From: Pseudomonadota bacterium
Lineage (GTDB): Bacteria; Pseudomonadota; Gammaproteobacteria; JAGOUN01
Assembly: GCA_040389005.1 (NCBI GenBank)
Contig: JAZKAS010000032.1
Span: 17,738 to 49,737 of the forward strand
Length of the DNA: 32,000 bases
Reading direction: 5' to 3'
The notes beneath the pieces were generated by a model that worked only from the letters and a program-made list of their open reading frames with translations, was not told the origin of the DNA and searched no databases. Position numbers and translations under genes: made by a program. Position 1 is the stretch's first letter; every line of letters begins with the position of its first letter. Below, in pieces: positions 4,455 to 20,437 of the stretch.

Positions 4455-4492
4455 GTAGGTAATATCTGCCGTAAATTACCTACTTCTTTGAT
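4453..4492 (+). terminator. putative rho-independent terminator
   Basis: AAGTAGGTAAT (4453-4463) pairs perfectly with ATTACCTACTT (4475-4485) around an 11-nt loop, followed by CTTTGATTT. It lies immediately after the 3519..4454 stop. Confidence 0.55.
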
Positions 4493-4616
4493 TTGGTACC
4501 TACTTAATTATGAGCTCACTGAAGATTATCCCGGATTGTGTTAAATATTGTAATCTCGTTTGCAAAACCCTTGGCTTTAATTGTAATGGCAGGCAAAAAA
4601 TCCGCGCTTGTGTGAT

Positions 4617-5504: not shown

Positions 5505-5569
5505 AGCGTATTCCTTTTTTCAAGCATTAGCGAGCAATTGTATATTCTTTAGCTTAAAGCTTTGTTAAA

Positions 5570-5746
5570 TCAGCGTGGATCAATAGCATCATGCGCGTAA
5601 AGGGATTATTTGAAAAAACGTTGCCCGCCAGTAGTTATTGTCATTACTACATTAGTTCGCTCTCTATCGACAAGATGGATCGCATCAGTGAAGCGGTACG
5701 TGCACACTGGGGGATAGAGAACTTGATAGATCAGTCAATCACTTGA
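5570..5746 (+). pseudogene. C-terminal remnant of an ISAs1-family (IS4-like, H-repeat-associated) transposase
   Basis: The frame ending in TGA at 5744-5746 reads ...KTLPASSYCHYYISSLSIDKMDRISEAVRAHWGIENLIDQSIT*. (R)YYISSL and (I/V)RxHWGIEN are the conserved C-terminal signatures of this transposase family. There is no upstream catalytic region and the normal LHW..LDV tail is cut short. Confidence 0.7.
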
Positions 5747-5778
5747 CAAATGAGTATGGCTTTAGCAATTAGGCCACT

Positions 5779-6573
5779 TTAAAAACGATAAATTAACCCT
5801 ACTAACAAGCTTTGAATAGTCAGATCTGCGCTGCTATTCATTGAGCTAGAGAACTCCGATAAGGTCGGCGTTGGGGTAATCGCATAATCGGTACTTATTG
5901 TCCCAAAATCGGAATATAGGTATTGTATTTGAAGAAACCAATTGTCGTTAAAAGCATACTCACCGCCCGCCCCTAGAGCCCAACCGTATTTCATTTCTGA
6001 AGTAGTTCCTGATCCATATGCGCCCGGTAGATTAAGGCCCAGCTGAGAATTATCATCACTATATGAAGAAGTATATTCAAGATTAGTCATTGCAGGGCCG
6101 CCAGTTAAATAAACTAACCAACGATTTTCTGCATAGCCTATCTTTAAACGTAATGTCCCTTCCCAATTGGCCTTAAGGGTCTCATTAGTCGCAAATTGTA
6201 TGCTGGGATCTGAGGTAAAAGTGTTATATCCAGAATGAGAACTATTTAGAGACAGCGTGTTAAAGCTCGCTTCACCTCCTATAACAATATGATTAAATTG
6301 GCGCTCATAGCCTCCAAATATACCGCCAGAAAAACTTCGCTCTGATAAATCATCATCAGCGGCAGCGGCAATCTCAGGAGCGTCTTGCGTATAATTAAAG
6401 TAAGTACCCCCTGGCGCCACAGAAGTTTGCATTTTTGTCTTGCTGAGCACACTTCCCATATCAGCACCGACATAAAATCCATTCCATTTTTCTTCATTTT
6501 GAAGAGAAAAAGCTTGTGTTGCCAAAAACAACAAAAGACATCCCTGCAAAAAAGTACAAACTTTAAAACTCAT
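5779..6573 (-). CDS. outer-membrane beta-barrel protein (OMP_b-brl / porin-like family)
   Basis: Signal peptide MSFKVCTFLQGCLLLFLATQAFS. It has GFYVGADMG near the N-terminus, alternating aromatic/Gly-rich strands and the terminal VGLIYRF (C-terminal Phe) beta-barrel signature. Confidence 0.8.
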   Translation of the reverse strand: MSFKVCTFLQGCLLLFLATQAFSLQNEEKWNGFYVGADMGSVLSKTKMQTSVAPGGTYFNYTQDAPEIAAAADDDLSERSFSGGIFGGYERQFNHIVIGGEASFNTLSLNSSHSGYNTFTSDPSIQFATNETLKANWEGTLRLKIGYAENRWLVYLTGGPAMTNLEYTSSYSDDNSQLGLNLPGAYGSGTTSEMKYGWALGAGGEYAFNDNWFLQIQYLYSDFGTISTDYAITPTPTLSEFSSSMNSSADLTIQSLLVGLIYRF

Positions 6574-7156
6574 AATAAATCCCTATATTAATTTTCTGAA
6601 TAGTATCAACATATAAATGAAAAAATCAATTGGCTTTTGTTAGCCATAAAAAGAGGGAAATCGTGAGGTTGTGCAAAAAAGATCTTATCACAACGTTGTG
6701 TTTCTAATAAGCCAATGCTCTTCAAGAGGGCGACCAATCGGTAGCCCCTACGCGCCCACCATCAACGCAAAACCTAACGAGTGCGTACGTTCACTACTTT
6801 TAAAATAATAAATTATTTTTCCACGTGCGGGGATTATTTTTTATGTACTTGCGAATATGCAACAACGATTTTTCATTGCACAACATGTCCAAAATCATTT
6901 AAGAGCATCACCTCGTTTTCAATTTCTCCAAACAAGCATTAAAATAAATAGCAATTAAAAAATATGACCGTGAACATATCGTAAAGCATTAAACGAATTA
7001 GGGGTGCTTTAAATAAAGGCTTTTTTCGAGATCCACGCCCTAGAGAAAAAGTCTTAGGGGGCAGAATTAAGCTTAGCGCCCTCTTAGGTAGAAAAATATG
7101 GCCATATCCACTATAATCGTCGCCATTCTTTATATTGATGAAGCGACACAACAAAA

Positions 7157-9022
7157 ATGCCAGAGCTTGGTTTATTAGGACAACTGACAACCCAAAAATA
7201 CGTGATGGCATCGTTTTTAAAGGAGTGGTTGCCAGTTCAATCCATCGTCAATCTTTGGACAAGCGCTGGCACTTCAAGCATACTGATACGCTCCTCTCTG
7301 TTTATGAGTCCACAACACAGCCTCACTCAGCTGACCTTAGAAAAAGCAACCGTTTCGGATTTAAAAAAATTCTTGCGCGTGCTTGTGAATACTAAATTTT
7401 CTAGCCCAATCTACTCAGCCGAAGAAATTAAGAAAAAGATTTTGAGTTCACTAAATCAGCCAGACGCAGATCTCGAGTATCGACTGCTGGCATTGAATTT
7501 TTTGAATGAAAATCCATTTACATTTGAGCGACCACGTAATTACGATCGATTAACTTTATTGCTTTATTGCGCAAACCCTTCGATAGACCCAGGCTTCATC
7601 GCTAAAGAAATTCAACGGCTCTTATACAAAGCTCGAGAAAATTTTCAAAGAATAAGGCAGCGCAGCAAGTTGAATAACGAACTCCATGATCCAACAAAAG
7701 CAATTATTATAGATATTGTGCTCATGCTAAACTCAACCGCACATAAGCTCGAAAGAAATCAAGCAGGAGCACTCATTGCACAAGCATATAATTTTTGCAA
7801 GAAGGCTCGAAGCTATTTTAATTGGCGTAATATGCAGGAAACGATCTATTTATTGGCCATGCTTACCGTTAAGTATCAAGTCAAAGAGCTTCACGAGCTG
7901 GTAGAATTTCTAGCTGATTTGGATGAAAGCTCGCAAGGCAGTATATATCCAAACTCCTCTCTTTGCCGCACTATAAGCGAAGTTGCTTCTCAGCATCCAT
8001 CTACTTTTACGACCGCAATTTCCCAAGGCTTACTGAATAATATCAGCAATAATGTTGCTCACGCATACGCTGTACTAGAAGCTGAGAAAAATAATTTTCT
8101 TGGGGACAGTCAGAGCGACCTGGTGAAAAATGCGTTCTGGACACTGCTAAACCCTCCCGATATACGCCTTCAACAGAAAATGATAGAACATGTTATACAT
8201 TTATGGAGCCACCTTGGAGACAGCACGCGTGGTACGATCAGTGATAAGTTATTGGCACTGCTAAGCGATAGCGATGACAAGTATAGCCGCCCCGTTCGTG
8301 GCGAGGCAATAAGGGCTGTCACACATTTATGGAATCACTTTGGTGACAATCTGCGTGAGGCAATGAGCAATAAGTTATTTGCGCTGCTAAGCGATACCAG
8401 ATCTGACGTTTGTGGCGAAGCAATAGAAGCTGTCGCATGTTTATGGCATCACCTTAAAGACAATCAGCGTGACATTATAAAAAATACGTTATTGACGCTG
8501 CTAAGTCATGCCGATATTAATATTCGTAGCTCGGCGATAGCCGCTGCTACAGGTTTATGGGATCACTTTGAAGACAGCCAGCGTGACATCGTGAAAAACA
8601 CGCTATTAGAGTTGCTAAGCAGCCATGTCAACTTTGATTTTCGTGACGCTGCCGCAAGTTTATGGGATCAGTTTAATGACAGTCAGCGTGACAATATATT
8701 ATCTAGACTACTACGTACTAATAAAAAGGCTTTGCTCAATGATGATAAGACATTTATTATCTCTATCATCAGCGCGTTAAGCGAGAGACAAGTATCGACC
8801 ATCCTTGAAAGGATAGTCGAATTTTTAGACGATGCTGATGTCGATGTTCGTACAAAAGCGTTTGATATTTTTACGTGTATCATTTGCCATCATCCAGACC
8901 ATGACTATCATGCTCATCTCAATGCCTTGAAAGATCCATTACTAAAAGCTTATCTTGTTCATGCCGCTGATACGATAAGAGCCGCATTGCAATTGCCAGC
9001 ACCAATCAACAGCCATCCCTGA
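7157..9022 (+). CDS. HEAT/ARM-type repeat protein
   Basis: 621-aa ORF. The C-terminal half holds repeated units of the form A(I/V)xAxxxLWxHFxDSQRDxxxNxLLxLLS, typical of short HEAT (PBS-lyase type) repeats. The start is uncertain (alternative ATG at about 7205; overlapping ORF 7135..7395). Confidence 0.7.
   Translation: MPELGLLGQLTTQKYVMASFLKEWLPVQSIVNLWTSAGTSSILIRSSLFMSPQHSLTQLTLEKATVSDLKKFLRVLVNTKFSSPIYSAEEIKKKILSSLNQPDADLEYRLLALNFLNENPFTFERPRNYDRLTLLLYCANPSIDPGFIAKEIQRLLYKARENFQRIRQRSKLNNELHDPTKAIIIDIVLMLNSTAHKLERNQAGALIAQAYNFCKKARSYFNWRNMQETIYLLAMLTVKYQVKELHELVEFLADLDESSQGSIYPNSSLCRTISEVASQHPSTFTTAISQGLLNNISNNVAHAYAVLEAEKNNFLGDSQSDLVKNAFWTLLNPPDIRLQQKMIEHVIHLWSHLGDSTRGTISDKLLALLSDSDDKYSRPVRGEAIRAVTHLWNHFGDNLREAMSNKLFALLSDTRSDVCGEAIEAVACLWHHLKDNQRDIIKNTLLTLLSHADINIRSSAIAAATGLWDHFEDSQRDIVKNTLLELLSSHVNFDFRDAAASLWDQFNDSQRDNILSRLLRTNKKALLNDDKTFIISIISALSERQVSTILERIVEFLDDADVDVRTKAFDIFTCIICHHPDHDYHAHLNALKDPLLKAYLVHAADTIRAALQLPAPINSHP
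8093..8722 (+). repeat. in-frame tandem coding repeats (5 full units plus 1 partial, 105-126 bp) of the HEAT protein
   Basis: The TTATGG (LW) landmark recurs at 8201, 8327, 8441, 8555 and 8660, giving periods of 126, 114, 114 and 105 bp, all multiples of 3. Confidence 0.8.
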
Positions 9023-9152
9023 AGCGAAGCATAATGCTAAAAAACAAAATCAATCTTTAAAAAAAATGTATCTGTTTTTACAATAATAGCGCCCTTTCAT
9101 TTTGAAGTGGCGGCGGCAATCAAATCAGTGTATTAACTTATTGATAAATAAG

Positions 9153-9197
9153 GATATTAATTTTCTTATATTCACAGATGCCCCCAATGTTGCCCCC
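9153..9197 (+). repeat. copy B of bipartite element GATATTAATTTT-N13-ATGCCCCCAATGTTGCCCCC; candidate distal att junction of the tmRNA island
   Basis: About 36/45 identity to 3415..3459. The core is 18/20 identical to 19931..19950, in the same orientation. Confidence 0.6.
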
Positions 9198-9395
9198 ATG
9201 CATACCACTTGAGCCCTATCACTAATCTTTTATGAATCACAGTTTTTCATTCGCGATTCGCGAATTACGAATGAAAAATATTCAAGATTCAAGAATCCTG
9301 AATATTCATGCGATCAATAGAGCAAAAAATGAATGGCTTTTAGCCTGAGCTCTCACCCCGCAAGCTACTTGCTACTCTGCTGAGTAGTAATCAAA

Positions 9396-10109
9396 TCAAA
9401 CTTGAGTTGACCGCTCTGGAACTCTCTTGATCCTTTTTTGAGAGTGAAGGCTTATTTTTAACTCAGGGAAATTTTCAGGTAAAGTATCGATGCCATCCAA
9501 TAAGTTTGCCATAAATTCATTGGCTTTACTCTCTTGCAAAGAGTATCCCTCCCCCACTGAATGTCCATATGAATTTCCATCGACAATAGACGTTCTAAAT
9601 TTTTTGATAAAAGCAGATGTTTCTCTGCCAAAAAGAAAATAGCTTTTTCTCCAAATAAAATCAATTTCTTTTATGAGATCATCTTTCCACGTCTTATATG
9701 ATGCCACAGAATTTACTTGATCATTGCTAGGATGATAGTAATCCCATAGCACTTTATCTATTACAGAAAACACTTCATATCTTTTTTCAAACAGGTCCTT
9801 ATTGTAATTTGCTTCATCAAGCTTGTACTTAAGCGCAACAAATATTGAACCATAGGATGAAGCCAATAAGGTAAAAGCCCAAACCTCACGATAGCAACAT
9901 GATAAAATAATTGTTATTATAAAAAAAGAAACTGTGACAAGCATTGGGTCTGTTTTAAAAGGATTCCTACAAACCCAGTTTTTTACAGTAAAAAATATTT
10001 CTTTAGCTTTACTATCGAAACGACATTGCCAAGATAGACATAGCTCACTCACCCCTCCTATACCAGCAATTTTTCCAGTATTATTGCATTTTCTACATTC
10101 CCAACACAT
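9396..10109 (-). CDS. Cys-cluster (zinc-ribbon-like) protein with two transmembrane helices and a soluble C-terminal domain
   Basis: The ORF in the track starts at TTG 10133. The ATG at 10109 has GAGGAAAGG just upstream and is preferred. The N-terminus reads MCWECRKCNNTGKI...C...C. TM segments are MLVTVSFFIITIILSCCY and VWAFTLLASSYGSIFVALKY. It begins 38 bp after the upstream gene stop, which suggests an operon. Confidence 0.6.
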   Translation of the reverse strand: MCWECRKCNNTGKIAGIGGVSELCLSWQCRFDSKAKEIFFTVKNWVCRNPFKTDPMLVTVSFFIITIILSCCYREVWAFTLLASSYGSIFVALKYKLDEANYNKDLFEKRYEVFSVIDKVLWDYYHPSNDQVNSVASYKTWKDDLIKEIDFIWRKSYFLFGRETSAFIKKFRTSIVDGNSYGHSVGEGYSLQESKANEFMANLLDGIDTLPENFPELKISLHSQKRIKRVPERSTQV

Positions 10110-10146
10110 ATTCCTTTCCTCTTTAACGAGCAAGCTACTTAAGATC

Positions 10147-10959
10147 TCATTTTTTTATTACATTAGCATGCTCAGGTAAGAGTACTGCCGCAGTTTTGAA
10201 CTGGATACACTCCAATTGTGCAATAGAAAAATCAGTTTTACTATTTAAACTAAGCGCATGACTACAAATATAAGAAGCAACATCCGCAATTTGTAGCATT
10301 GATGAACCATCTGCTTTTACAATATGAGGAGAAAATGGTTTCACTGCACTTCCAGTATCATAGAAACCCGAACACCAATTATGAGCTTGCCTACGTTTCT
10401 TACCAATAAATTTTGCTTTTGTTGCGTTGTGAGAGACAGTTACTTCGCATTCTTCAAATAAAGGCCCGTGCGAACGATCAATAAAACATGCTTGTGCTAA
10501 CAAGCCGTGAAGCCCTTGTGGTGTAGGAGTAATCAAAAGCTCACAATCCAGGTTAGTATCAGAGCTTGGAAAAGTATAAACATTTTTGCATTTTTCATGA
10601 TCACAGTAAGCATATTTAATAAAGATAGGGATTCTGTTGATTATAGCAACAACTCCTTTTACTAGATCAAAAACATCTTTCTCGCCCAGATGAGCTAATC
10701 CAACCTTTTTTCTATTGTCACCACTGAATATATCCTTACAATGCAAAATGGTTGAAGCTGGAATTCTATAAAATTTTTTCAGTTCCGCAAGCCTGAACTC
10801 TAAATTAGACAAATAGTTTTTACCAATAATAGCAAAAGCATATATTAAAAGGTTATTAACCTGACTTTCATCTCCATATGCCAAATATACTGCTTGATTT
10901 TCTGTGTTAATTGCGTGAACTCCAAAAGTAGCGATAGATAAAGTAGCCTTAAAAAACAA
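10147..10959 (-). CDS. DUF3800-like protein
   Basis: Three motifs I associate with DUF3800 appear in order: N-terminal YLAYGDES, mid ILHCKDIF and C-terminal MLQIADVASYI. The start codon (TTG) is uncertain. Confidence 0.55.
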   Translation of the reverse strand: MFFKATLSIATFGVHAINTENQAVYLAYGDESQVNNLLIYAFAIIGKNYLSNLEFRLAELKKFYRIPASTILHCKDIFSGDNRKKVGLAHLGEKDVFDLVKGVVAIINRIPIFIKYAYCDHEKCKNVYTFPSSDTNLDCELLITPTPQGLHGLLAQACFIDRSHGPLFEECEVTVSHNATKAKFIGKKRRQAHNWCSGFYDTGSAVKPFSPHIVKADGSSMLQIADVASYICSHALSLNSKTDFSIAQLECIQFKTAAVLLPEHANVIKK

Positions 10960-11074
10960 TAAAAATTTTGAAAATATGTGGGGATAACTTATAAAGTTTC
11001 AATAGGCAAAGGTTCGAGCCAAAGCTAGCGAAAAAGAAGGAGGGATACTTCTAGAAGGTTACGCGACAAAAAAA

Positions 11075-11368
11075 TTAAAGCTGTTTTAAAATAGTCAATT
11101 GCTCGACTTTTTTAAGGCGGCTAAATTTCAAGATTAACAATGCTAACTCTTCCGACTCCGCATAAAAATAAGCAGCTGGCACCTTTAACGCTGTCGCAAT
11201 TCGTTTAAGCGTATGATAATCAGGCGTGTGCCTGCCCTTCTCATAATGATTCATCCGAGCGCTAGCTGAAAACTCATCCATACCTGCAGCAATACCCAGC
11301 TGCTTTTGAGACAGCTCAGCAGCTTTACGAGCTTCTTTAAGTCTTTTGCAGAGAGGAGAATCGGCCAT
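11075..11368 (-). CDS. XRE-family helix-turn-helix transcriptional regulator
   Basis: RLKEARKAAELSQKQLGIAAGMD...MNHYEKGRHTPDYHTLKRIATALKVPAAYFY is a canonical HTH_3 (Cro/C1) pattern. The gene is divergent from the helicase gene. Confidence 0.85.
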   Translation of the reverse strand: MADSPLCKRLKEARKAAELSQKQLGIAAGMDEFSASARMNHYEKGRHTPDYHTLKRIATALKVPAAYFYAESEELALLILKFSRLKKVEQLTILKQL

Positions 11369-11547
11369 TTATTGTACAAAAATAGTTCTTTAATATACTT
11401 AGAGAATCTATGTTTTTTGCACCCTCAGATACTTAGGATTCCTATACTTTTTTGTCAGCTCAATATATAGTTGCAACCAATTAATTTCCGGAAATAACTT
11501 CTGGCGGCAAATAAGAATATCAGTGGCAAAATCAAGGAGATAAAGAA

Positions 11548-14505
11548 GTGAAAATTCAACTACACGATGTGATAAAAAATGCACAGTGTTGGGATGACGT
11601 TTATCAGGAACTTTCAAAGTACAACGCAAAAGCTAGCCCTCATTCAAAGAAAAAAAGTGTGGCAGGAAAGCTATTTGAAGAGTTTTGCGAATACTATTAT
11701 AAAGCTGAGCCTTCCGAAATACATAGTTACAAAAGCGTTAATCTCTTTAAAGATACTCATAGCAAAATTATAGAAAGGCTTAAGTTAGGAAAAGTAGAAC
11801 ACGGCATAGATTTAATTTTAGAAAGTCATGAGGGTGAACTATCTGCTGTTCAATGTAAATTTACAAACGACCAAAACTCAAATGTGAGTTGGAGCAGAAA
11901 CAAGATTGCCAATTTATTTGCCGAGGGTGATTTGGGTGATTATTTTGTAGTTTTTACTAATGCAGCAAACATTGATCGACACAGCTTGACCAAGAAGCCA
12001 GGCAAACTCAAAGTCATTACTTTTAATACATTATCTCAACTATCCTCTGAAACACTTGAAAATATCAAGCGCTTAGCTGAAAAGAAGAAGCCCATTCCGC
12101 ATAAACCCTATGAGCCTAGAGACCATCAAAAACAAGCAATACAAGCCGTAATCAATGGATTCGAGAAATCAGACAGAGGGCAATTAATTTTACCCTGTGG
12201 CGCAGGTAAAACACTTACTGCCCTATGGATTAAAGACGCATTGGATGCAAAACGCACGATTGTATTACTCCCTTCGCTAGCTCTATTACGTCAGATCAAA
12301 AAGGAATGGCAAGAAAATCAAACCCATCATATTGCAAGTATTTGTGTCTGTTCTGAATCTGATATTAGCAATGAGGAAGATTGCATACAAGATAACCTAT
12401 ACGAAATAAGCGGTAAAGTTTCTACCAACCCCGATGAAATAAGAACTTGGCTGAGCCATCATGAAGAGTGTATTGTTTTTTCTACGTACCAAAGTTTAGA
12501 GGCTGTCTGTGACGCCGTTAGATCAACTTCAGTAGTTTTTGATTTAGCGATTTGTGACGAAGCACATAAAACAACAGGAGGAAAAAACAATCAATTCACT
12601 TTGATTCATTCTAACGATAATTTGCCTGTCAAAACACGTCTTTACATGACAGCGACCCCTCGTGTCGTTACTGGCGGTCTTAAAAATGTAAAAAATGATG
12701 ACATCCGTTATCTTTATGATATGAGCAATCCTAAATATTTTGGCCCCGAATTTTATTACATGAGTTTTAAGCAAGCTATAGATAGTAATATTCTTGTTGA
12801 TTATCAAATTATTGCTATCGGAATTGGTGACCAAGAATTGGCTGAAGCCATAAAGCAACGAAAATATGTAACTAACTACAGTACACTTGATGAAGTTGCC
12901 AATAATTTTGCGCTTGAAAAAATGATGCAAATGCATGGCCCTACTCATGCTTTAACATTTCATTCATCAGTATCAAAAGCCGGGGCATTTAAAAAGCGGC
13001 ATTGTGAAATATTTCCCCTAATAAAAACGGATCATGTCAATGGAAATATGACTACTAATGAAAGAGAAAAGCGCCTTCGTGAATTTAAAGCAGAAGAAAA
13101 AGCCGTCATGACTAATGCGCGTTGTTTAACCGAGGGGGTAGATGTGCCAGCAATTGATGTTGTTTACTTTTGCGACCCTAAGAATTCGAAAATTGACATT
13201 GTGCAAGCAGCAGGAAGAGCACTTAGAAAAGCAGATAATAAAAAAATAGGCTATATAGTAGTTCCAATTTTTCACACAGAGAGAGGCAGCCTAGATGAGG
13301 TTATTCAGTCAGGCCCGTTCAAAAATCTTATTAATGTAATTAGATCGCTCTCGGCTCACGATGATCGACTAGTCGCTGAAATTAATAATATTAAAAGCCA
13401 ACTAGGTAAACAAAAAACAAATACTCAACATTTTTTTATTGAATCTACAGAGAAAGTAATAACCATTATTGGGTTTGAACAGGCTCTTCAAGAAGCCTTA
13501 TTTGATCAAATTGTGAATAAAATTAAAGTGCCTTGGAGAAATTTTGTTGAAGCGAATGAATTTGCACGTAGCTTACGCTTGAAAAATGTAGATGCTTGGA
13601 AAGCTTATTGCAACACTGGAGAAAAGCCAATAGATATTCCTGAGTATCCTCAAGATATTTATAAAACTTGCGGGTGGTCAACTTGGGGCGATTGGTTGGG
13701 CACAGGGGTTGTTGCCAATCAAAATAGAAACTATAGAACCTTTTATGACGCCAGAGATTTTGCTCGTAGTTTAAATTTAGAAGGACTACAAGCCTGGCAA
13801 TCCTATTCCAAAGGAGGAAGTAGGCCAGCTGACATCCATTCACTACCATCTCGATATTATAAAGACAAAGGTTGGATCTCCTGGGGAGATTGGTTGGGCA
13901 ATGGAAACGTCGCTAATTGCAATAAAAAATTTAAACCATTTGAGGAAGCGCGTGAATTTGCTCGTAGTTTACACTTGGAGAATGGAAAAGCATGGAAAAT
14001 TTACTATACAACTCACTCTATACCAATAGATATTCCTGAATACCCTGATGATATTTACAAAAATAAAGGTTGGATATCATGGGGAGACTGGCTGGGCAAT
14101 GGGAACGTCGCTAATTTCAATAAAAAATTTAGGCCATTTGAGGAAGCACGTGAATTTGCCCGCAGTTTACGTTTAGAAAATCGCAATGCTTGGGAAGCTT
14201 ACTCTAAGAGCGGCAACTTACCCGCAGACATTCCTGCCAGCCCTCGAGGATTTTATATAGATCAGGGTTGGATATCATGGGGAGATTGGTTGGGCAATAG
14301 TAACGTTGCTAATTCCAATAAAAAATTTAGGCCATTTGAGAAAGCGCGTGAATTTGCCCGCAGTTTATATTTAGAAAATCGTAATGCTTGGGAAGCCTAC
14401 TCTAAGAGCGGCAACCTACCCGCAGACATTCCTGCCAGCCCTCGAGGATTTTATATAGATCAAGGCTGGATATCCTGGGGAGATTGGTTGGGAAAATTTA
14501 GTTAA
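11548..14505 (+). CDS. Mrr-like PD-(D/E)xK nuclease + SF2 DEAH helicase + five C-terminal 66-aa repeats
   Basis: GTG start with AAGGAG about 8 nt upstream. The Mrr_cat-like motif is HGIDLILESHEGELSAVQCKF. Helicase motifs are RDHQKQAI, LILPCGAGKTLTAL, ICDEAHKTTG, YMTATP, TEGVDVP and QAAGRALR. The repeats follow the pattern F.PFEEAREFARSL.L......W..Y.......P.DIP..P...Y...GWISWGDWLG. Confidence 0.85.
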   Translation: MKIQLHDVIKNAQCWDDVYQELSKYNAKASPHSKKKSVAGKLFEEFCEYYYKAEPSEIHSYKSVNLFKDTHSKIIERLKLGKVEHGIDLILESHEGELSAVQCKFTNDQNSNVSWSRNKIANLFAEGDLGDYFVVFTNAANIDRHSLTKKPGKLKVITFNTLSQLSSETLENIKRLAEKKKPIPHKPYEPRDHQKQAIQAVINGFEKSDRGQLILPCGAGKTLTALWIKDALDAKRTIVLLPSLALLRQIKKEWQENQTHHIASICVCSESDISNEEDCIQDNLYEISGKVSTNPDEIRTWLSHHEECIVFSTYQSLEAVCDAVRSTSVVFDLAICDEAHKTTGGKNNQFTLIHSNDNLPVKTRLYMTATPRVVTGGLKNVKNDDIRYLYDMSNPKYFGPEFYYMSFKQAIDSNILVDYQIIAIGIGDQELAEAIKQRKYVTNYSTLDEVANNFALEKMMQMHGPTHALTFHSSVSKAGAFKKRHCEIFPLIKTDHVNGNMTTNEREKRLREFKAEEKAVMTNARCLTEGVDVPAIDVVYFCDPKNSKIDIVQAAGRALRKADNKKIGYIVVPIFHTERGSLDEVIQSGPFKNLINVIRSLSAHDDRLVAEINNIKSQLGKQKTNTQHFFIESTEKVITIIGFEQALQEALFDQIVNKIKVPWRNFVEANEFARSLRLKNVDAWKAYCNTGEKPIDIPEYPQDIYKTCGWSTWGDWLGTGVVANQNRNYRTFYDARDFARSLNLEGLQAWQSYSKGGSRPADIHSLPSRYYKDKGWISWGDWLGNGNVANCNKKFKPFEEAREFARSLHLENGKAWKIYYTTHSIPIDIPEYPDDIYKNKGWISWGDWLGNGNVANFNKKFRPFEEAREFARSLRLENRNAWEAYSKSGNLPADIPASPRGFYIDQGWISWGDWLGNSNVANSNKKFRPFEKAREFARSLYLENRNAWEAYSKSGNLPADIPASPRGFYIDQGWISWGDWLGKFS
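13534..14505 (+). repeat. five in-phase tandem 198-bp repeats (last unit shortened by the stop codon)
   Basis: Unit starts fall at 13534, 13732, 13930, 14128 and 14326, an exact 198-bp period. By eye units 4 and 5 differ at only about a dozen positions; units 1-3 are progressively more diverged. Confidence 0.9.
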
Positions 14506-14528
14506 AATTGCCTGCCCTCTGCGGCGGG

Positions 14529-14948
14529 TTAAGCTTTCATAATTCGCTCATAAGCCCTCATTGCTTCGATCGGATCAGTAACCGTAAGTTTTAGCGGAGC
14601 AGCTATATTGGGCTGCTCTGTAATGAATTTTTTAAGTCGATCCGCCTCGTCTATATTTAAACGACCATCCAACACTGCCTGCATTATCTCATCATTTAAT
14701 TTGGCAATGCCTTTGTTGTCTAATTTTGCCGGTAATTCAATATCCAAAGGCTCATACTTCGTCTTAGGAATTAATCGCTCGATGCAAAGGCGAAGAGCTG
14801 TGCTATCACCTTCTAGCGCAAGCTCAATTGTTTTGCTAATTAACTCTTCCGCATGCGGTTCTAATAAATTTGCCAATCGCACTCGTCTACTGACTGCGCC
14901 TTTTGGTCGGCCATTAGGATTGCCTGATTTTCCAACTTTAAATGTCAT
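14529..14948 (-). CDS. DUF5681-like phage/island protein
   Basis: The N-terminal KSGNPNGRPKG motif is characteristic of DUF5681-type phage-associated proteins (from memory). The gene converges on the helicase gene. Confidence 0.5.
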   Translation of the reverse strand: MTFKVGKSGNPNGRPKGAVSRRVRLANLLEPHAEELISKTIELALEGDSTALRLCIERLIPKTKYEPLDIELPAKLDNKGIAKLNDEIMQAVLDGRLNIDEADRLKKFITEQPNIAAPLKLTVTDPIEAMRAYERIMKA

Positions 14949-15012
14949 TCTTGTTTTCCTATTGTTTTTTACAAGTAAATTTATTTTCTATAATGAAATA
15001 TTATGGTTAAAA

Positions 15013-15084
15013 CCATGTCTTAATGTCTTGCAAGTCTTTAAAAAAGACTATTTTAAAAGACATGAAGACATGTAAGACATTGGT
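15013..15084. promoter_or_regulatory. heptamer array forming a 70-bp dyad (operator, structured RNA or terminator)
   Basis: ATGTCTT occurs at 15015 and 15023 and AGTCTT at 15033. These face AAGAC at 15044 and AAGACAT at 15057, 15065 and 15074. The array is flanked by AACCATG / CATTGGTT, with the dyad centre near 15047. It lies in the gap between the primase stop and the DUF5681 start. Confidence 0.55.
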
Positions 15085-15088
15085 TCGT

Positions 15089-17473
15089 TTAATAACTACA
15101 AGATTTTATCTCCCACCATATATAACTTCCTCTTTTCCCAAGGCTTTTACATCCGATGCCCAGCTGGCGTAACGCTGGAGCCACTCTCCGCAAGGCATCC
15201 GCGAAGCCTTTTGCTGTGCGCGGCCAACTATCAACACCTAGTGGTCTTTTCTGTTCTACTTTTACAAATAAATCTTTTATAGGCATGGTTATTGTTCGCT
15301 TATTTTCTGTTTCAAATAATTCAATTAATGCCGATGCAACTGGACTGGCGTCAATAGTTCTCACAATAGATTCTTCTCTGCTCTTATTGAACTCCTTTAG
15401 AAATTCTTCTGTGGATTTACCCATAACATTAGCTACCGCCATGCCAAAACGAGCAAACTCAGCTAAGCGAGTACGATTATTTTCAGGTAATTTCATTTCA
15501 GGTAAACACGCAAGTGATTGAGAAAAAATAGTTAACAAAGCTCCAAATAAATTGGAATACTCTGTTTCAAAAATACGCCAAAGCTCAGTCATTTCAACTC
15601 GATGTTGAATTTCTGGAGTTTCAACAGATATCGTCCGATCAATTAAATCTTGCGCTGTTATTGCAGCGCTAATTCCATTTAATACGATAGGACGTTTTAC
15701 TACTAATACAGATTCTTCAGCATCGCTATATAATTTTCTTTTAGCGTGTCCGCCACCTGTAGATAAAATACATAAAGCATCTTGTACTGGCGCAGCAAGA
15801 TGGCTGATATTTTCATAGCTCACAAGCCAATTAATACCCGCGCTAACAAAAATGTCATCTGTCGTTTTAGGAGCGCCTCTCAAATTACAACCGTTAGGAT
15901 CAATTAATTGTCTTAACATGCTTTGTGTTGTGCTTTTTGCGCTACCTTGCTCACCGATCAACTCTAATATGGGAAAAGGAGTATCTGGTCTCAGACAATC
16001 AATTAACCATGTAATCACTAATAGCCTGCTGTTTTCGGGGATATTTATAATTGACCAAAGCTTAGAGATGTCTGGGCCGCGAGTAGGTTCTGGCAAAGGT
16101 CTCAATGTTTCTGGGCGTATAAACCTAACAGGAGGATTATTTATTATTTGCCAGTTTCCAGCAGTAATACTGATCGCCCTGCTCTGATCATTTTCTCCTA
16201 AATCAATGTAATAAACATCTTCATATTGTGCAACACGAATATAAACATCATGACATTCACCTTTATGTCTGGCAATTCCGTTAAGAGTAGTCATCGCTTC
16301 ACGTAGCGATTGATCACGAACTGATTTTCCAGTGGATTCATAAAACTTAGCAACTAACCAATTTTTAAATGACTTTCCATCCAGCCTTCGCGCTTCTTGC
16401 GTTGCTATGTCTCGAGCGTAGGTGTCAGAATTTTTGTCATGAAAAAGCTCTACTCTTTGCTCTACAAATTTGACTAATGTAGATGACTGGCTTTGTTTGT
16501 TATCATGGCTTTCTTCCTGAATTTTATTTTCAGGTTCTTTGGTGTTTTCTAGCAAATTTTTTAATAAACTGGCGCCAAATTCTTGTAAATAGTCATTCAC
16601 GTCATAATTGGATGGCTTATCAAGAGGAAGTTCGACCCATCGACTTGAAGTAATAGAAGCGATTTCAACTGCATCATCTTCCTTGCCGCGATCTGGAACA
16701 ATAATTAATTGAGCAATAGGATATTTTTTACGTAATACCTGAGTTACTTTTCTAATGCGATGAGCGCCAAAACATACAATAGCCGCCTCTCCTATTGCTT
16801 CATTAACAGCCCAAGCTTGGCCAATACCTTCACAAATATAAATACGATTTTTTATTTCTCCTACTGCAAAAAAACCATCATTAAATTTTGCGCCGGGTAA
16901 ATTAAGTTTTTGGCTACCATCACGAGGAATAAATTGGAGGGTTTGTATTTTATCCTCGCTATAACATGGAACCACTAAAAAACCTTCAACGCTTTTTCCA
17001 CAAACTTCATAATAAGGTGCGTCAGCAGGATACACTCTTAATCCATCGCTTTTACCTTGTTTACATTGGATGTAAGGTTCGCTCAATGTCGCAGGTACGC
17101 AAAGCTGCCAAATTTTAGCAGCAGTTTCATTTTCATATTGAACGGCTGTTGAAGGCATTTTATTTTGCTGCTCTATATCAACGCGTGATGATATATGCTC
17201 AGCCAGATAATCGTTCGGCCGTTGCCAACCTTCATCAGTTGCAAGTTTATAAAGCGTTCCTACAGTAATAGGACCATCGGCTTTAAATGAATCCCAAGTA
17301 TTTTTGCAATCATCTTCACTAACATAGTTATGCCCTCCTTCACTCCAAGAGTGAAAAGCTTCAAATGTTAGTTCGGCAGATTTCGCAGCCATTCCGATGC
17401 GAACCCACTTTTCACGTGGGCAGGCAGGGTCTAAGAAATTTAGCGCGGAGTGCGCACATTCTATTTTATGCAT
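15089..17473 (-). CDS. island replication protein: PriCT-2 + Toprim + P-loop (primase-helicase, P4 alpha-like role)
   Basis: The N-terminus is PriCT-2-like (REKWVRIGMAAKSA...FHSWS...TVGTLYKLATDEGW). The Toprim-like segment is ICEGIGQAWAVNEA...IIVPDRGKEDDA. The Walker A-like motif is LIGEQGSAKSTT. Confidence 0.75.
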   Translation of the reverse strand: MHKIECAHSALNFLDPACPREKWVRIGMAAKSAELTFEAFHSWSEGGHNYVSEDDCKNTWDSFKADGPITVGTLYKLATDEGWQRPNDYLAEHISSRVDIEQQNKMPSTAVQYENETAAKIWQLCVPATLSEPYIQCKQGKSDGLRVYPADAPYYEVCGKSVEGFLVVPCYSEDKIQTLQFIPRDGSQKLNLPGAKFNDGFFAVGEIKNRIYICEGIGQAWAVNEAIGEAAIVCFGAHRIRKVTQVLRKKYPIAQLIIVPDRGKEDDAVEIASITSSRWVELPLDKPSNYDVNDYLQEFGASLLKNLLENTKEPENKIQEESHDNKQSQSSTLVKFVEQRVELFHDKNSDTYARDIATQEARRLDGKSFKNWLVAKFYESTGKSVRDQSLREAMTTLNGIARHKGECHDVYIRVAQYEDVYYIDLGENDQSRAISITAGNWQIINNPPVRFIRPETLRPLPEPTRGPDISKLWSIINIPENSRLLVITWLIDCLRPDTPFPILELIGEQGSAKSTTQSMLRQLIDPNGCNLRGAPKTTDDIFVSAGINWLVSYENISHLAAPVQDALCILSTGGGHAKRKLYSDAEESVLVVKRPIVLNGISAAITAQDLIDRTISVETPEIQHRVEMTELWRIFETEYSNLFGALLTIFSQSLACLPEMKLPENNRTRLAEFARFGMAVANVMGKSTEEFLKEFNKSREESIVRTIDASPVASALIELFETENKRTITMPIKDLFVKVEQKRPLGVDSWPRTAKGFADALRRVAPALRQLGIGCKSLGKRGSYIWWEIKSCSY

Positions 17474-17540
17474 AATATTTATCCTTAAATATTTATGATT
17501 AGTTGTTGTTGTGTTGTCTCAGAGAAGTGGTGTAAGAAGC

Positions 17541-17903
17541 TTAATGATGATTTATCAAGAAATTTGCCATTTCAGAAATATCACAACTGCCATTTTGCAA
17601 AGGTGCGTCATCTATCCATGGCGCTAAGCAAAGTCCCTGAATTTCCAATTGACTATCTATAAATGTAGGAAAAAAATTCCCAATACCTGTAAGCACTAAT
17701 ATTCCATTAATGGTGGGTATGAGCTGACATTCTTCATACGAATTATATTTAATACCTTTATTTCCCGCTTTAAGAAACAGATCTTTAGGCAGATATATCA
17801 TTTGAGTATATGTTTTCTTAGGCGTTGACTCTTCTTTTTTTCCAATCAAGCGGTAATGTTTATCATTAATTGGCGCAAGTTTACTTGTTATGTTATTTTT
17901 CAA
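17541..17903 (-). CDS. hypothetical protein (120 aa)
   Basis: The ORF overlaps the alpA stop by 4 bp (17900-17903), suggesting translational coupling. No family recognised. Confidence 0.5.
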   Translation of the reverse strand: MKNNITSKLAPINDKHYRLIGKKEESTPKKTYTQMIYLPKDLFLKAGNKGIKYNSYEECQLIPTINGILVLTGIGNFFPTFIDSQLEIQGLCLAPWIDDAPLQNGSCDISEMANFLINHH

Positions 17904-18157
17904 TGGGTATACCCCATTTTGCTTGAGTCCGTTTTATGACTCGCAATTAAGGCATGGATATCTTCAGCGTGCCAGGCAGTACAGCGAGGAGATAACTTTA
18001 TTGGCTTAGGGTATTTTCCAGATTTTACTCCAGCCCAAAAACTTGACCTCGAGATCGGGTAGACTGCAAGCACTTGTGGTAAGCGTACAAATCCTTTTTC
18101 AGGGATAATAGATTGAGAAATGATCGTTTGACCATTGTGATTATTAAATTGAACCAT
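17900..18157 (-). CDS. alpA: AlpA-family phage regulatory protein / excisionase-type HTH
   Basis: FVRLPQVLAVYPISRSSFWAGVKSGKYPKPIKLSPRCTAWHAEDIHALI matches the AlpA/CP4-57 regulatory protein pattern. Confidence 0.8.
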   Translation of the reverse strand: MVQFNNHNGQTIISQSIIPEKGFVRLPQVLAVYPISRSSFWAGVKSGKYPKPIKLSPRCTAWHAEDIHALIASHKTDSSKMGYTH

Positions 18158-18186
18158 AATATATCCTTATATTTATAGTTAGCGAC

Positions 18187-18633
18187 ATCCGATAAGATAA
18201 GATGCAGCTTTGCTGATTAGGGCATGATTTTTTTAAAGCGCCCGTGGGTTTATTGGCGAAATCCTTTCACCAGTTTTCTTATAGGCATTCAGAATTGATT
18301 GCTTGATTATATTTACAGTTAAGTTACCTCATAATACCTCCTTGTATTTATGCCTATGGTTAATTGGCCATGCCCGATAAGATGCAATTTTTCTGATTAG
18401 ATCAGAATTTTGTAAAAAAATATTGTGGGTTTGCTGGTGAAAGTCTTTCACCAATTTTTCTATAGACACGGTTTCTTGAATAGAAAGAGTTGATTACCTG
18501 CACTTATATTGGCGCTTTACTGCGTCCAATAAAATCCAAGCACATCAACTATATCACAATTTTACAAAAAGTCAAGCAATTTACACTCAGCAGTTTATTG
18601 GCGCGAGACTTTTACCAATTTCACTATAGGCAT
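18187..18633. repeat. iteron-like direct repeats (two ~105-bp units plus a third core copy)
   Basis: Cores are GTGGGTTTATTGGCGAAATCCTTTCACCAGTTTTCTTATAGGCAT (18244-18288), GTGGGTTTGCTGGTGAAAGTCTTTCACCAATTTTTCTATAGACAC (18425-18469) and CAGTTTATTGGCGCGAGACTTTTACCAATTTCACTATAGGCAT (18591-18633). Units 1 and 2 also share CGATAAGAT...CTGATTAG upstream. Confidence 0.75.
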
Positions 18634-18706
18634 GATGGCATTGAAAAGTAAGTAACTTATTCAAATAATCTTTTAATTGCTACTGCTTAGTTTTGTATTT
18701 ATTTAG

Positions 18707-19900
18707 TTATTTATGGCTAGATTTTAATTGATCCAAATAATCCGCCCACTGCTGCATCATCTTGCGTCTCTCCGCTAAATGTGCCGTGCGGTTATAGGCT
18801 CTACCGTTCGGATCACGCACTGCATGACCTAATTGATGCTCGATAAAATCAGGCCGTACACCCAGCACTTCATCTAATACAGTGCGTGCCATCGCTCGAA
18901 ATCCATGACCACTCATTTCTTCTTTTGCAAATCCCATACGTCGCAACGCGGCGAGCACGGCGTTATTACTCATTGGGCGTAATGTAGAGCGTGCGCTAGG
19001 AAAAACATATCTGCCTGTTCCTGTCAAAGCGTAAATCTCTTTGAGTATGTTTATTGATTGTGTAGAGAGCGGCACTAGAAGCGGTTGTCGCATCTTCATT
19101 CGTTCTGCGGGTATATTCCACTCAGCTTTTTCTAAATCGATCTCTGCCCATTCAGCGGCGCGTAATTCTCCAGGACGTACAAAAACAAGCGGTGCAAGTT
19201 TTAATGCGCATTTAGTCACGAGCATTCCTTGATAATCATCTATCGCTCTTAATAATGGCGCAATTTCTTCAGGTTGTGTGAATGCGGCAAGATGTTTTGC
19301 TTTAGTTGCTGGTAATGCGCCTTTTAAATCGGGTACAGGGTCACGTTCGCATCGACTAGTGGCAATGCCGTACCTAAAAACTTGGCTACAATTTTGTTGC
19401 ACTCGGTGCGCTGTTTCTAATGCGCCTCGCTCCTCTATACGTTGCACTACTTTAAGTAATGTTGACGCGGTGATGTCGGCTATTGACATTTCGCCAAGCC
19501 ACGGGAAGATATCTTTTTCTAAGCGCTTTAAAAGTCTGTCGCCGTGAGAGGCTGACCAATTAGCAGAATATTTAGAATGCCACTCTCTTGCGACCACCTC
19601 GAAGCTATTCTCACTTTTTGCTAAGCGGCTTGCTTTCACGGCTTTACGGTTCTCGCTGGGGTCGATCTGTTGTGCCAATAGCTTTCGAGCTTCATCGCGG
19701 CGTTCGCGAGCGTCTTTAAGGCTGACTTCTGGATAGGTGCCTAATGAGATACGTTTCTCTTTACCGTCAACGCGATACTTAAGGCGCCACCATTTACCGC
19801 CTGCGGGTGAAATCTCCAAGTACATGCCTTTCTCATCAGAGAGCTTGTAGGTTTTATCTTTAGGCTTGCTCGTGCGTATGGTTATGTCAGTCAGGCTCAT
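18707..19900 (-). CDS. int: tyrosine recombinase, P4/CP4-57 integrase family
   Basis: The N-terminal arm-binding domain reads LTDITIRTSKPKDKTYKLSDEKGMYLEISPAGGKWWRLKYRVDGKEKRISLGTYPEVSLKDAR. The catalytic region contains HGFRAMARTVL, HQLGHAV and RAYNRTAHLAERRKMMQQWADYL. Confidence 0.92.
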   Translation of the reverse strand: MSLTDITIRTSKPKDKTYKLSDEKGMYLEISPAGGKWWRLKYRVDGKEKRISLGTYPEVSLKDARERRDEARKLLAQQIDPSENRKAVKASRLAKSENSFEVVAREWHSKYSANWSASHGDRLLKRLEKDIFPWLGEMSIADITASTLLKVVQRIEERGALETAHRVQQNCSQVFRYGIATSRCERDPVPDLKGALPATKAKHLAAFTQPEEIAPLLRAIDDYQGMLVTKCALKLAPLVFVRPGELRAAEWAEIDLEKAEWNIPAERMKMRQPLLVPLSTQSINILKEIYALTGTGRYVFPSARSTLRPMSNNAVLAALRRMGFAKEEMSGHGFRAMARTVLDEVLGVRPDFIEHQLGHAVRDPNGRAYNRTAHLAERRKMMQQWADYLDQLKSSHK

Positions 19901-19930
19901 TTGGGGGCAGCAACTTTGTTGTTAATCAAG

Positions 19931-19950
19931 ATGCCCCCGATATTGCCCCC
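19931..19950 (+). repeat. copy C of the C-rich core ATGCCCCCGATATTGCCCCC; candidate int-proximal att core
   Basis: It lies 30 bp from the int start codon and 115 bp from the tmRNA 3' end. An inverted partial copy, TTGGGGGCAGCAACTTT, lies at 19901-19917. Confidence 0.6.
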
Positions 19951-20064: not shown

Positions 20065-20437
20065 TGGTGGAGGCGGCGGGAGTTGAACCCGCGTCCGCAA
20101 ACTCTACGCCTTCGCTTCTACATGCTTAGTCTTGTCTTTATTTGATTCTGCGTCGCCGACAAGAAGGCGTTCACAGAACGAAGCTTTAATTGATTTTCGG
20201 GATTTAAGTCAAAGCACCTTAAATCATTATCTTATGAATATTACCGTTCCCCAATCCCATAAGCAGAATCAGTTCGCGGCAACGACATTAAGCGGCTTTA
20301 GCTATTTCTAGATCAGCAGCGTCGTTGTAAATTGCATTATTTGCGATTATATTTACTTGTAATACGTTTAACGAGATTACTACGTGCTCGGCATGCGGCT
20401 CGGGTTTCGCTATTCACGTCGAAGCCAGAACGCCCCC
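20065..20437 (-). ncRNA. ssrA: tmRNA (transfer-messenger RNA)
   Basis: The minus strand reads GGGGGCGTTCTGGCTTCGACG at the 5' end and GGACGCGGGTTCAACTCCCGCCGCCTCCACCA at the 3' end. The internal tag ORF starts AATC|GCA AAT AAT... and ends GCC GCT TAA. Confidence 0.95.

Follow-up and report, generated by a model that had tools for sequence, protein, structure and literature searches.

Type ISP restriction–modification (R-M) enzymes, the textbook case of site recognition, methylation, translocation and cleavage coupled in one chain, combine an Mrr-like nuclease with a PD-QxK motif, a translocase, a γ-methyltransferase and a target-recognition domain (TRD) in a single polypeptide (PMC3874165), and a coupler domain between the motor and the methyltransferase is described in PMC4666363. 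In one of these enzymes, LlaGI, mutagenesis established that D74, D78 and K94 are essential and that E38 and Q92 contribute (PMC2790908); D74 has been described as 100% conserved among Mrr-family enzymes. Here we analyse a 985-amino-acid (aa) protein in which the nuclease and motor of this lineage are joined to five C-terminal repeats. Its open reading frame (ORF) lies in a window of 32,000 nucleotides from a Pseudomonadota bacterium (assembly GCA_040389005.1, contig JAZKAS010000032.1, positions 17,738 to 49,737 of the forward strand). An earlier annotation of the window, made from the letters without database searches and referred to below as the sequence-only reading, had proposed that this ORF unites a nuclease, a helicase and a repeat array and that it encodes an undescribed defence effector. 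The three-part ORF is confirmed by Pfam, by the positions of the motifs and by the presence of five 66-aa repeats, and we regard the molecular description of the protein (nuclease, motor, repeat array) as fairly secure.

By alignment and by modelled fold, residues 1 to ~620 are specifically homologous to the nuclease–translocase module of Type ISP enzymes. In a phmmer comparison with solved structures, LlaBIII (4xqk) ranked first (E = 6e-61, over query residues 38–437 and 514–620), followed by LlaGI (5ffj; 1e-54) and then by XPB, UvrB and RadD at ~1e-8. When the full-length AlphaFold model (pLDDT 84.8, pTM 0.68) was used as a query for Foldseek, LlaBIII 4xqk again came first (1.7e-36), with LlaGI at 8e-21, XPB and RadD at ~1e-14 and SauUSI at 5e-13. 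Consistent with these results, the best PADLOC match is to the Type IIG profile REase_MTase_IIG (E = 1.6e-100), of which only positions 17–434 of 1646 are covered, and plasmid genes labelled ‘type ISP restriction/modification enzyme’ are 28–30% identical over query residues 19–658. Pfam recognizes ResIII at residues 188–372 (E = 5e-23) and Helicase_C at 456–561 (3.5e-15). All motifs of superfamily 2 (SF2) that the sequence-only reading had quoted are present, namely RDHQKQAI (191–198), GAGKT (218–222), DEAH (337–340), TATP (368–371), TEGVDVP (528–534) and QAAGRALR (553–560), and the Walker A, DEAH and VI motifs are intact and conserved in 120 relatives.

The PD-(D/E)xK signature on which the sequence-only reading had relied likewise holds up. 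This signature, HGIDLILESHEGELSAVQCKF (residues 85–105), matches up with LlaBIII and LlaGI residue by residue, and Pfam detects Mrr_cat_2 at residues 53–109, with an E value of 2.6e-6 when the whole protein is searched and of 2.2e-7 with the N-terminus alone. Motif I corresponds to FE (43–44), motif II to E84-x-G-x-D88 and motif III to Q102-x-K104, such that E44, D88, Q102 and K104 are the equivalents of E38, D78, Q92 and K94 of LlaGI. Because these equivalents are present the nuclease is, on the strength of the alignment, probably active, E84 being one caveat to which we return below. Across the Mrr-motor-repeat family the catalytic residues of the nuclease are kept almost universally.

What follows the motor in Type ISP enzymes is missing from this protein. 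The alignment with LlaBIII stops at query residue ~620 (LlaBIII residue ~660), and the ~20 structured residues that remain before the repeats leave no coupler. Neither Pfam nor NCBIfam detected a γ-class N6-adenine methyltransferase domain, and the PADLOC Type IIG profile is unmatched beyond position 434. There is also no TRD, since the C-terminal half of LlaBIII is unmatched and the C-terminus consists of repeats instead. Because these three defining domains were tested for and are absent, the protein falls outside the Type ISP R-M enzymes; it is a derivative of that lineage, and it is best viewed as a truncated, re-tooled Type ISP enzyme (985 aa as against ~1,570 aa). Like LlaBIII and LlaGI it has an Mrr-family nuclease with D...QxK and then an SF2 double-stranded DNA (dsDNA) translocase in one polypeptide, and by analogy it probably works like the restriction half of a Type ISP enzyme. 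Its nuclease is coupled to a motor, and the cuts probably fall at a distance from the site of loading. Unlike these enzymes, to which it is only ~28–30% identical, it lacks methylation that would protect the host as well as any known sequence specificity. The earlier statement that the protein does not look like the restriction subunit of an R-M system was in this respect misleading.

The linker between the motor and the array is disordered in the AlphaFold model at residues 620–634 (pLDDT <50) and then forms a short strand and a helix that lead into the array. The sequence immediately preceding the array, F-x-x-L-x-x-x-L-F-x-Q-x-I-x-K, is kept in relatives with each of the three kinds of tail (INT_rpt, HA and DUF4379) described below.

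The tail of the protein comprises five 66-aa repeats, each with a WGDWLG end (residues 653–982, nt 13504–14493), which at the DNA level form an array with a 198-nt period (TRF score 744, five copies in register). Repeats 4 and 5 share 94% of their amino acids and 92% of their nucleotides, and because of the latter figure we take them to be a recent duplication. Both the ~66-aa period and the GW..WGDWLG ending are those of Pfam INT_rpt (PF14882), yet the Pfam model fails to detect the tail's own repeats, even at E = 10; Pfam searches with the isolated tail, with one repeat and with the linker returned sub-threshold noise only (Imm25, GIDA_C_1st, Phage_g100). In a phmmer search, by contrast, the tail matched database proteins with E values down to 1.6e-249, most of these matches being precomputed as PF14882 (‘Integrase repeat unit’), and some JGI records of tail homologues carry the name ‘Phage-integrase repeat unit’. 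The PF14882 cutoff of 26.5 bits is exceeded by the homologues P0034 (31.3 bits) and P0156 (57.1 bits) and is passed by 19 of 47 long relatives (E up to 5e-29), with just positions ~1–32 of the 55-position model matched. An exhaustive HMMER search for the repeat among 1.84 billion cluster representatives returned 5,892 at E ≤ 1e-3 and 1,384 at E ≤ 1e-30. Judged by these similarities, the repeats belong to a very large INT_rpt/PF14882-like family.

The partners of the repeat suggest what it does. In a survey of 47 long repeat-bearing proteins that had not been pre-selected as family members, we found Helicase_C in 23, ResIII in 16, Mrr_cat_2 in 9 and Methyltransf_8 in three (E down to 6e-45), together with one case each of Integrase_2, GntR, MTES_1575 (restriction endonuclease-like), GIY-YIG and SNF2. 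The counts for Helicase_C and ResIII indicate that the repeat is above all a helicase appendage, and the association from which the Pfam name ‘integrase repeat’ derives is a minority one (an integrase in one protein of the 47). All identified partners other than Methyltransf_8 act on or bind DNA, and the net charge of 987 repeat units of the family averages +4.8 and is positive in 92%. The best inference from these sequences is that the array engages DNA. In AlphaFold models each unit comprises two ten-residue helices and then two short helices around an invariant Y, GW and WLG; a model of two units (residues 791–920) has a pLDDT of 89.6 per unit and a pTM of only 0.55, which we read as units that may fold independently on flexible links. 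A search with the repeat profile against PDB sequences gave only a chance match to a synthetic affimer (E = 0.4).

As a separate observation, a fold search of BFVD with the two-unit model matched parts of giant-virus ‘Superfamily II helicase’ proteins, from Klosneuvirus (E = 2e-3, 24% identity), Bodo saltans virus, Marseillevirus LCMAC102, Terrestrivirus and Catovirus, as well as an unnamed 309-aa viral protein (A0A292GIR6, E = 3e-8). Helicase-plus-repeat architectures are thus common to amoeba-associated bacteria and protist viruses.

The tail is a swappable module, because close relatives of the motor bear HA or treble-clef zinc arrays instead. In particular, the relatives P0084, P0105, P0076 and P0086 are 50–56% identical to the 985-aa protein over the first ~650 aa, and P0084 and P0076 end in five HA domains (PF03457), P0105 in five DUF4379 treble-clef zinc modules; in P0086, HA and INT_rpt units are mixed. 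These proteins, which are labelled ‘DEAD/DEAH box helicase’ or ‘Helicase associated domain protein’, share with the 985-aa protein the nuclease, the motor, the linker and about five small repeats in the same position, and they differ from it in the fold family of the repeat; Pfam finds no match to HA in the 985-aa protein. In the five-repeat variants inspected, the array begins directly after the common conserved helix. Copy number varies as well, from 2 to 12 within the INT_rpt branch, the closest relative (P0015, 67% identity) having three repeats, and near-identical units inside one protein are also present in P0049 and P0011. In the island of the closest relative (L089, 201–4556), downstream of the three-repeat gene come an unannotated 427-aa ORF and a 111-aa ORF of INT_rpt repeats that are ~51% identical to those of the 985-aa protein; this arrangement gives the impression that the array was once longer and was interrupted by an insertion.

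HA domains bind DNA according to Mills et al. 2013 as cited in PMC12191111, a study that places HA among the C-terminal domains fused to PLD nucleases and that argues that the C-terminal domain sets target choice. A wider generalization can be framed from these variants, in which the Mrr-motor unit would have been re-targeted repeatedly by arrays of unrelated DNA-reader repeats (INT_rpt, HA, treble-clef zinc), with copy number (2–12) and unit sequence tuning the target, and in which the protein would stand for a widespread, hitherto unrecognized class of methylation-independent, repeat-array-guided restriction enzymes that extends from Legionellales islands to SAR11 and Verrucomicrobiota, with repeat-helicase relatives in giant viruses. 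We put this forward as a conjecture that is rather unlikely to hold in full.

The gene is preceded by a divergently transcribed gene for an XRE-family helix-turn-helix (HTH) protein and, 8 nt 5′ of its GTG start codon, by a Shine-Dalgarno sequence (Table 1); both the strong ribosome-binding site and the divergent regulator had been noted in the sequence-only reading. The GTG start places the N-terminus in line with the N-termini of homologues. The XRE protein matches the PADLOC Control_protein profile (PDLC03667) over its full length (E = 4.9e-28, residues 7–97 against profile positions 3–93 of 101), and a 52% identical homologue occupies the same divergent position in L010. The promoter region between the two genes contains two 24-nt boxes spaced 34 nt apart, which are 78% and 61% identical to their L010 counterparts, as compared with 12–34% for the flanking intergenic DNA; strong dyad symmetry is found in box 2 of L010 only (18/23). 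From their conservation and placement we infer that the boxes are candidate operators, through which the C-like regulator probably governs expression of the 985-aa ORF. The resemblance to R-M controller (C) proteins lies in the full-length match and may extend to the two repeated boxes in the promoter region. Classical C proteins, however, time expression of the nuclease relative to that of the methyltransferase, and there is no methyltransferase here; furthermore, the XRE gene is divergent from the nuclease gene rather than co-transcribed with it. At the other end of the gene, the strongest terminator-like hairpin of the region (14594–14621, plus strand; 11 pairs and then a T-run) lies ~90 nt 3′ of the stop codon, within the 3′ end of the convergent DUF5681 gene, and may terminate the transcript of the 985-aa ORF.

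A species scan with one genome per species identified at least 581 relatives of the protein, which databases name only ‘DEAD/DEAH box helicase family protein’. Among the matches listed, proteins with the full architecture come from Verrucomicrobiota, Bacteroidota, Pirellulaceae, Nitrospirota, Lentisphaerota, Desulfuromonadaceae and Sulfuricurvum, and also from SAR86, Pelagibacteraceae, Rickettsiales and other groups. No full-length relatives were found in phage genomes; two ‘Listeria phage’ records are Type ISP-like, and cyanophage matches are to the helicase only. Separately, IMG/VR holds ~8 contigs classed as viral (L090–L097), mostly of 4–22 kb, with the full Mrr-motor-repeat architecture at 32–35% identity.

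The genomic contexts of the homologues often involve mobile or defence genes. Two other genomes, L089 and L007, carry a homologue on the same island backbone as in the window, the 985-aa protein being 67% identical in L089 (Table 1 gives the backbone genes). The L. pneumophila homologue lies on an integrase island with a Gp49/HTH pair; that of L. sainthelensi is near an integrase, RNase_T, DinG/GIY-YIG genes and UmuDC-type polymerases; that of Rickettsiella is directly 5′ of, and on the same strand as, the coupling-protein and VirB genes of the type IV secretion system (T4SS) of an integrative and conjugative element (ICE); and that of a member of the Parachlamydiales adjoins a serine recombinase, an XRE gene and an AAA_21 ATPase. 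Another homologue sits beside STAND, HD-CE/HATPase and AAA_13 proteins, and yet another beside PemK/HicA toxins and a STAND ATPase. We also took a census of neighbours in 25 further species (three nearest genes on each side, 150 ORFs; a simple ORF caller with a 90-aa floor, by which small regulators are missed), in which no Pfam family occurred more than three times and in which BrxC/D, McrBC, Shango SngB/C, SoFic, PDC candidates, DUF559, YhcG and integrases were scattered among housekeeping genes. The homologues thus appear to be moderately associated with defence and mobile elements, as judged by a plain count of neighbours.

Across the ~33 neighbourhoods no conserved partner gene was found, and we therefore take the protein to work alone or with a small regulator only. 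Homologues with a partnered methylase, which the sequence-only reading had named as evidence that would tell against it, did not turn up in the contexts inspected: no DNA methyltransferase is present in the 8 homologue contexts, and none recurs among the 150 neighbours. With no methyltransferase as a partner, discrimination of host DNA must rest on something other than host methylation.

Comparison with catalogued systems bears out the earlier impression that the protein matches no complete named defence system. No signature protein of PADLOC-DB v2 (Hachiman, Nhi, Hna, Zorya, DISARM, Druantia, Pbe and others) gave a full-length match, partial matches at the level of the helicase being limited to PbeA (E = 2e-32 over query residues 99–426) and weak ones to Cas3, DinG and mREase_IV. 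In the literature searched we found no description of the architecture as a defence system. The earlier claim of an undescribed domain order stands insofar as we found no published match, and falls short insofar as the repeat is no orphan but an INT_rpt-type unit and the same motor exists with HA or DUF4379 arrays.

The reading that we favour, by a modest degree, is that the protein is a single-polypeptide, ATP-driven, DNA-translocating restriction nuclease of Type ISP descent, controlled by a C protein and with an array that engages DNA. In this proposal, the coupler, the γ-methyltransferase and the TRD would have been lost, and five small helical INT_rpt repeats would stand in their place behind a flexible linker. 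The array would tether or load the enzyme on target DNA, either through multivalent contacts of low specificity or by reading a feature of foreign DNA; the motor, as its homology and intact motifs suggest, would burn ATP and track along dsDNA; and the Mrr domain, by analogy with LlaGI and LlaBIII, would nick or cut when translocation stalls or when two enzymes collide. In Type ISP enzymes, cleavage follows the movement of two translocases towards each other from head-to-head sites. Expression would be controlled by the divergent C-type HTH protein through the two conserved boxes of the shared promoter region. So constituted, the protein would most likely shield its host, or the island itself, from phages, plasmids or competing mobile elements. 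Self might be told from non-self by modified bases, following the Type IV logic of modification-dependent restriction exemplified by SauUSI (PMC12707154) and the END nucleases, by DNA ends or replication intermediates, the sensing of which is proposed for nuclease–helicase systems such as Hachiman (PMC12278908), or by tight control of expression. That defence is the most likely role, as the sequence-only reading had it, gains support from the C-type regulator and from the homologues that are carried by integrase islands or an ICE or that adjoin STAND, toxin–antitoxin, BREX, McrBC or Shango genes; we hold a defence role to be somewhat more probable than its absence.

Several observations weigh against restriction as the function. 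A translocating nuclease without a methyltransferase and with unspecific DNA binding should be toxic to its host, and we found no mechanism that protects host DNA. Residue 84 (nt 11797–11799), the equivalent of the essential D74 of LlaGI, is E, and nuclease activity could therefore be reduced; of 100 relatives scored, 91 have D here and 9 share the E, and the closest relative, P0015, has D. The units of the protein's own array are nearly neutral (0 to +3), and an hhalign comparison of the INT_rpt unit with the HA unit returned a probability below 1%. The Foldseek comparison of a repeat model, which the sequence-only reading had suggested, retrieved the viral helicase parts in BFVD but no significant match in the PDB (best E = 2.5), where RecX, FtsK-gamma and Ltp are weak lookalikes only. 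Many homologues of Verrucomicrobiota and Bacteroidota lie among housekeeping genes, and we know of no phages of the lineage to which this bacterium belongs. The literature searched contains no experimental study of members of the Mrr-SF2 repeat-array family. Finally, TtrA-type proteins, which carry tandem HA domains, are described as conjugation/telomere helicases (10.1101/2024.11.13.623437).

One form that restriction could take is that of a modification-dependent, Type IV-like enzyme, whose array would read modified or hypermodified bases much as SauUSI does. The absence of a methyltransferase from the contexts inspected fits such an enzyme, as do the modification dependence of the founding member of the Mrr family (PMC3874165) and the existence of nucleases with swappable C-terminal sensors, HA among them (the END nucleases; PMC12191111). 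SauUSI itself (PDB 7clg) parallels the protein in having a nuclease, an SF2 ATPase and a C-terminal DNA-reading module in this order in one chain without a methyltransferase partner, and the Foldseek match given above runs through the ATPase; its nuclease, however, is of the PLD rather than the Mrr family, it reads DNA through an SRA domain instead of a repeat array, and its motor is no specific relative. Moreover, no known modified-base reader fold (SRA, EVE/PUA, YTH or iEndoIII) was detected in the tail by Pfam or by structure search of the PDB, and the near identity of units inside single proteins (as in repeats 4 and 5 of this array and in P0049 and P0011) suggests avidity over a precise base-flipping pocket. 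We consider this specific version doubtful.

A less probable alternative, which we judge unlikely, is that the protein maintains or transfers DNA in the manner of TtrA, serving the excision, transfer or establishment of element DNA and not attack. Streptomyces TtrA resembles it in its SF2 motor (~30% identity over query residues 191–609), in its tandem small repeats and in its residence on mobile replicons, and ‘Helicase associated domain’ proteins encoded within ~2 kb of the ends of Streptomyces linear plasmids match the motor at ~30% identity. The position of the Rickettsiella homologue directly upstream of T4SS genes and the co-inheritance of the 985-aa gene with the island backbone point the same way. 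TtrA-type proteins, however, lack the Mrr domain, the matches beginning at query residue ~191, and have HA rather than INT_rpt repeats, and their reported role is DNA-end transfer, not restriction. The near-universal retention of the nuclease residues, the R-M controller type of the regulator, the lack of transfer genes near most homologues of the 25 other species, and the presence on the island of its own primase, integrase and AlpA likewise speak against a transfer role. As an observation in its own right, on linear plasmids of Streptomyces and Kitasatospora the TtrA-type genes lie ~0.6–2 kb from the replicon end and match in the motor only, from which it follows that the Type ISP motor lineage has also been recruited to telomere/conjugation biology.

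It is more improbable still that the protein is a housekeeping or SOS-type repair or recombination nuclease–helicase for stalled forks or damaged DNA that is borne by the island by chance. The ordinary metabolic genes, RmuC and DNA ligase beside many Verrucomicrobiota and Bacteroidota homologues would fit, as would the UmuDC-type polymerases and the DinG-like helicase near the L. sainthelensi copy, and there is weak NCBIfam similarity to RadD, XPB and UvrB, which runs through the helicase core. The affinity to Type ISP enzymes, however, is ~20 orders of magnitude better than that to repair helicases, the distribution is patchy with the genes of the closest relatives borne by islands or an ICE, variable repeat number and swapped tails are typical of conflict genes, and the regulator belongs with the controller proteins. 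Replication of the island, which the sequence-only reading had offered as an alternative role, is unlikely, and we did not retain it as the principal one, since a primase is already encoded on the island and since the gene is also found in unrelated contexts. Finally, an effector against the eukaryotic host or against giant viruses within amoebae is barely conceivable. Intracellular bacteria (Legionella, Rickettsiella, Parachlamydiales) are the source of many close relatives, and the repeat fold is shared with giant-virus helicases (BFVD: Klosneuvirus, Bodo saltans virus, Marseillevirus). However, free-living members of the Verrucomicrobiota, Bacteroidota, SAR86, Pelagibacteraceae and Nitrospirota have the full architecture just as well, a regulator of the bacterial C-protein type suggests that the protein acts on DNA within the bacterial cell, and no secretion signal turned up, though no systematic search for one was made.

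Whatever its function, the protein indicates that the nuclease–motor half of a Type ISP enzyme can be detached from methylation and sequence reading and be fused to interchangeable repeat arrays, in hundreds of species of many phyla. If restriction is its function, a common and currently unannotated single-gene system would be added to the defence catalogues, and how a translocating nuclease without a methyltransferase spares its own chromosome would become a sharp mechanistic question; if it transfers DNA as TtrA does, restriction-type motors would be linked to the propagation of mobile elements. The repeat, which has thousands of representatives, would gain from this protein its first functional context, and the swappable tails would suit engineering of the targeting of motor-nucleases.

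Table 1. Coordinates of the features discussed, in window positions
Feature	Position (nt)	Strand	Basis or comparison
21-nt motif GATGCCCCCRAWRTTGCCYCC, further direct copy	3439–3459	+	
21-nt motif GATGCCCCCRAWRTTGCCYCC, second copy, candidate distal border of 10.8-kb island	9177–9197	+	
245-aa cargo ORF, distal island end, no family match	9396–10133	-	
270-aa cargo ORF, distal island end, sub-threshold DUF3800 match (E 0.005)	10147–10959	-	
97-aa XRE/HTH regulator, R-M controller (C) protein type	11075–11368	-	Pfam HTH_31, HTH_3; PADLOC
Two 24-nt direct-repeat boxes, candidate operators	11395–11418, 11429–11452	.	Divergent promoter region
Shine-Dalgarno AAGGAG, 8 nt 5′ of GTG start	11534–11539	+	Sequence read directly
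985-aa ORF: Mrr nuclease, Type ISP-like SF2 translocase, five INT_rpt-type repeats	11548–14505	+	
Mrr-family PD-(D/E)xK nuclease domain, aa 1–170	11548–12057	+	Pfam Mrr_cat_2, LlaBIII alignment
SF2 helicase-like dsDNA translocase, both RecA lobes with all motifs, aa 183–620	12094–13407	+	ResIII, Helicase_C, LlaBIII/LlaGI
Linker, aa 620–652	13405–13503	+	AlphaFold model
Repeat 1, aa 653–718	13504–13701	+	
Repeat 2, aa 719–784	13702–13899	+	
Repeat 3, aa 785–850	13900–14097	+	
Repeat 4, aa 851–916	14098–14295	+	
Repeat 5, aa 917–982	14296–14493	+	
DUF5681 island backbone gene, convergent with 985-aa ORF	14529–14948	-	70% aa identity to L089
Island primase, PriCT_2 + Toprim_3, 794 aa	15089–17473	-	60% aa identity to L089
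AlpA-like excisionase/regulator, 85 aa	17900–18157	-	tblastn, 68% to Pfam Phage_AlpA gene of L089
Tyrosine integrase (Arm-DNA-bind_3, Phage_int_M, Phage_integrase)	18707–19900	-	89% aa identity to L089
21-nt motif GATGCCCCCRAWRTTGCCYCC, int-proximal copy, candidate attachment site (att)/island border	19930–19950	+	
tmRNA (ssrA), adjoins integrase end of island	20065–20437	-	

The 985-aa ORF is accessory cargo of an island adjacent to ssrA, and core genes lie beyond ssrA, on the side opposite to the island. The 21-nt motif GATGCCCCCRAWRTTGCCYCC has three direct copies in the window, as compared with 0.01 expected by chance, and the copies at 3439 and 9177 lie inside a 49-nt repeat with 80% identity. 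This arrangement suggests tandem islands by ssrA, namely a 10.8-kb island that bears the integrase (9177–19950) and an integrase-less remnant (3439–9177). The motif is absent from all other loci compared, and a search that included the far border found no duplicate of the 3′ end of the tmRNA, within 3 mismatches, that could serve as att.

In line with the sequence-only reading, the ORF lies on the island with neither a methyltransferase nor a specificity subunit adjacent to it, and no methyltransferase is found among the ORFs of the island; a PrmC/HemK-like methyltransferase at 23134–24012 was rejected as a partner, as it lies outside the island among core genes and adjoins chorismate synthase. 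The description of the island as satellite-like stands in part: the core of a phage satellite (integrase, AlpA-type regulator, primase) is present, but we found no link between the island and a helper phage, and Pfam and PADLOC matched no helper-exploitation genes among the island ORFs, of which several small ones are unannotated. Likewise, the 245-aa and 270-aa cargo ORFs have no PADLOC match. The remnant island encodes a 621-aa HEAT-repeat protein (7157–9022, plus strand) with a weak PADLOC match to OloA (E = 4.6e-5). Its gene contains five tandem repeats of 105–126 nt (8188–8693) with the motif LW.H(F/L).D..R, and the protein resembles repeat-rich effector-like proteins of intracellular bacteria.

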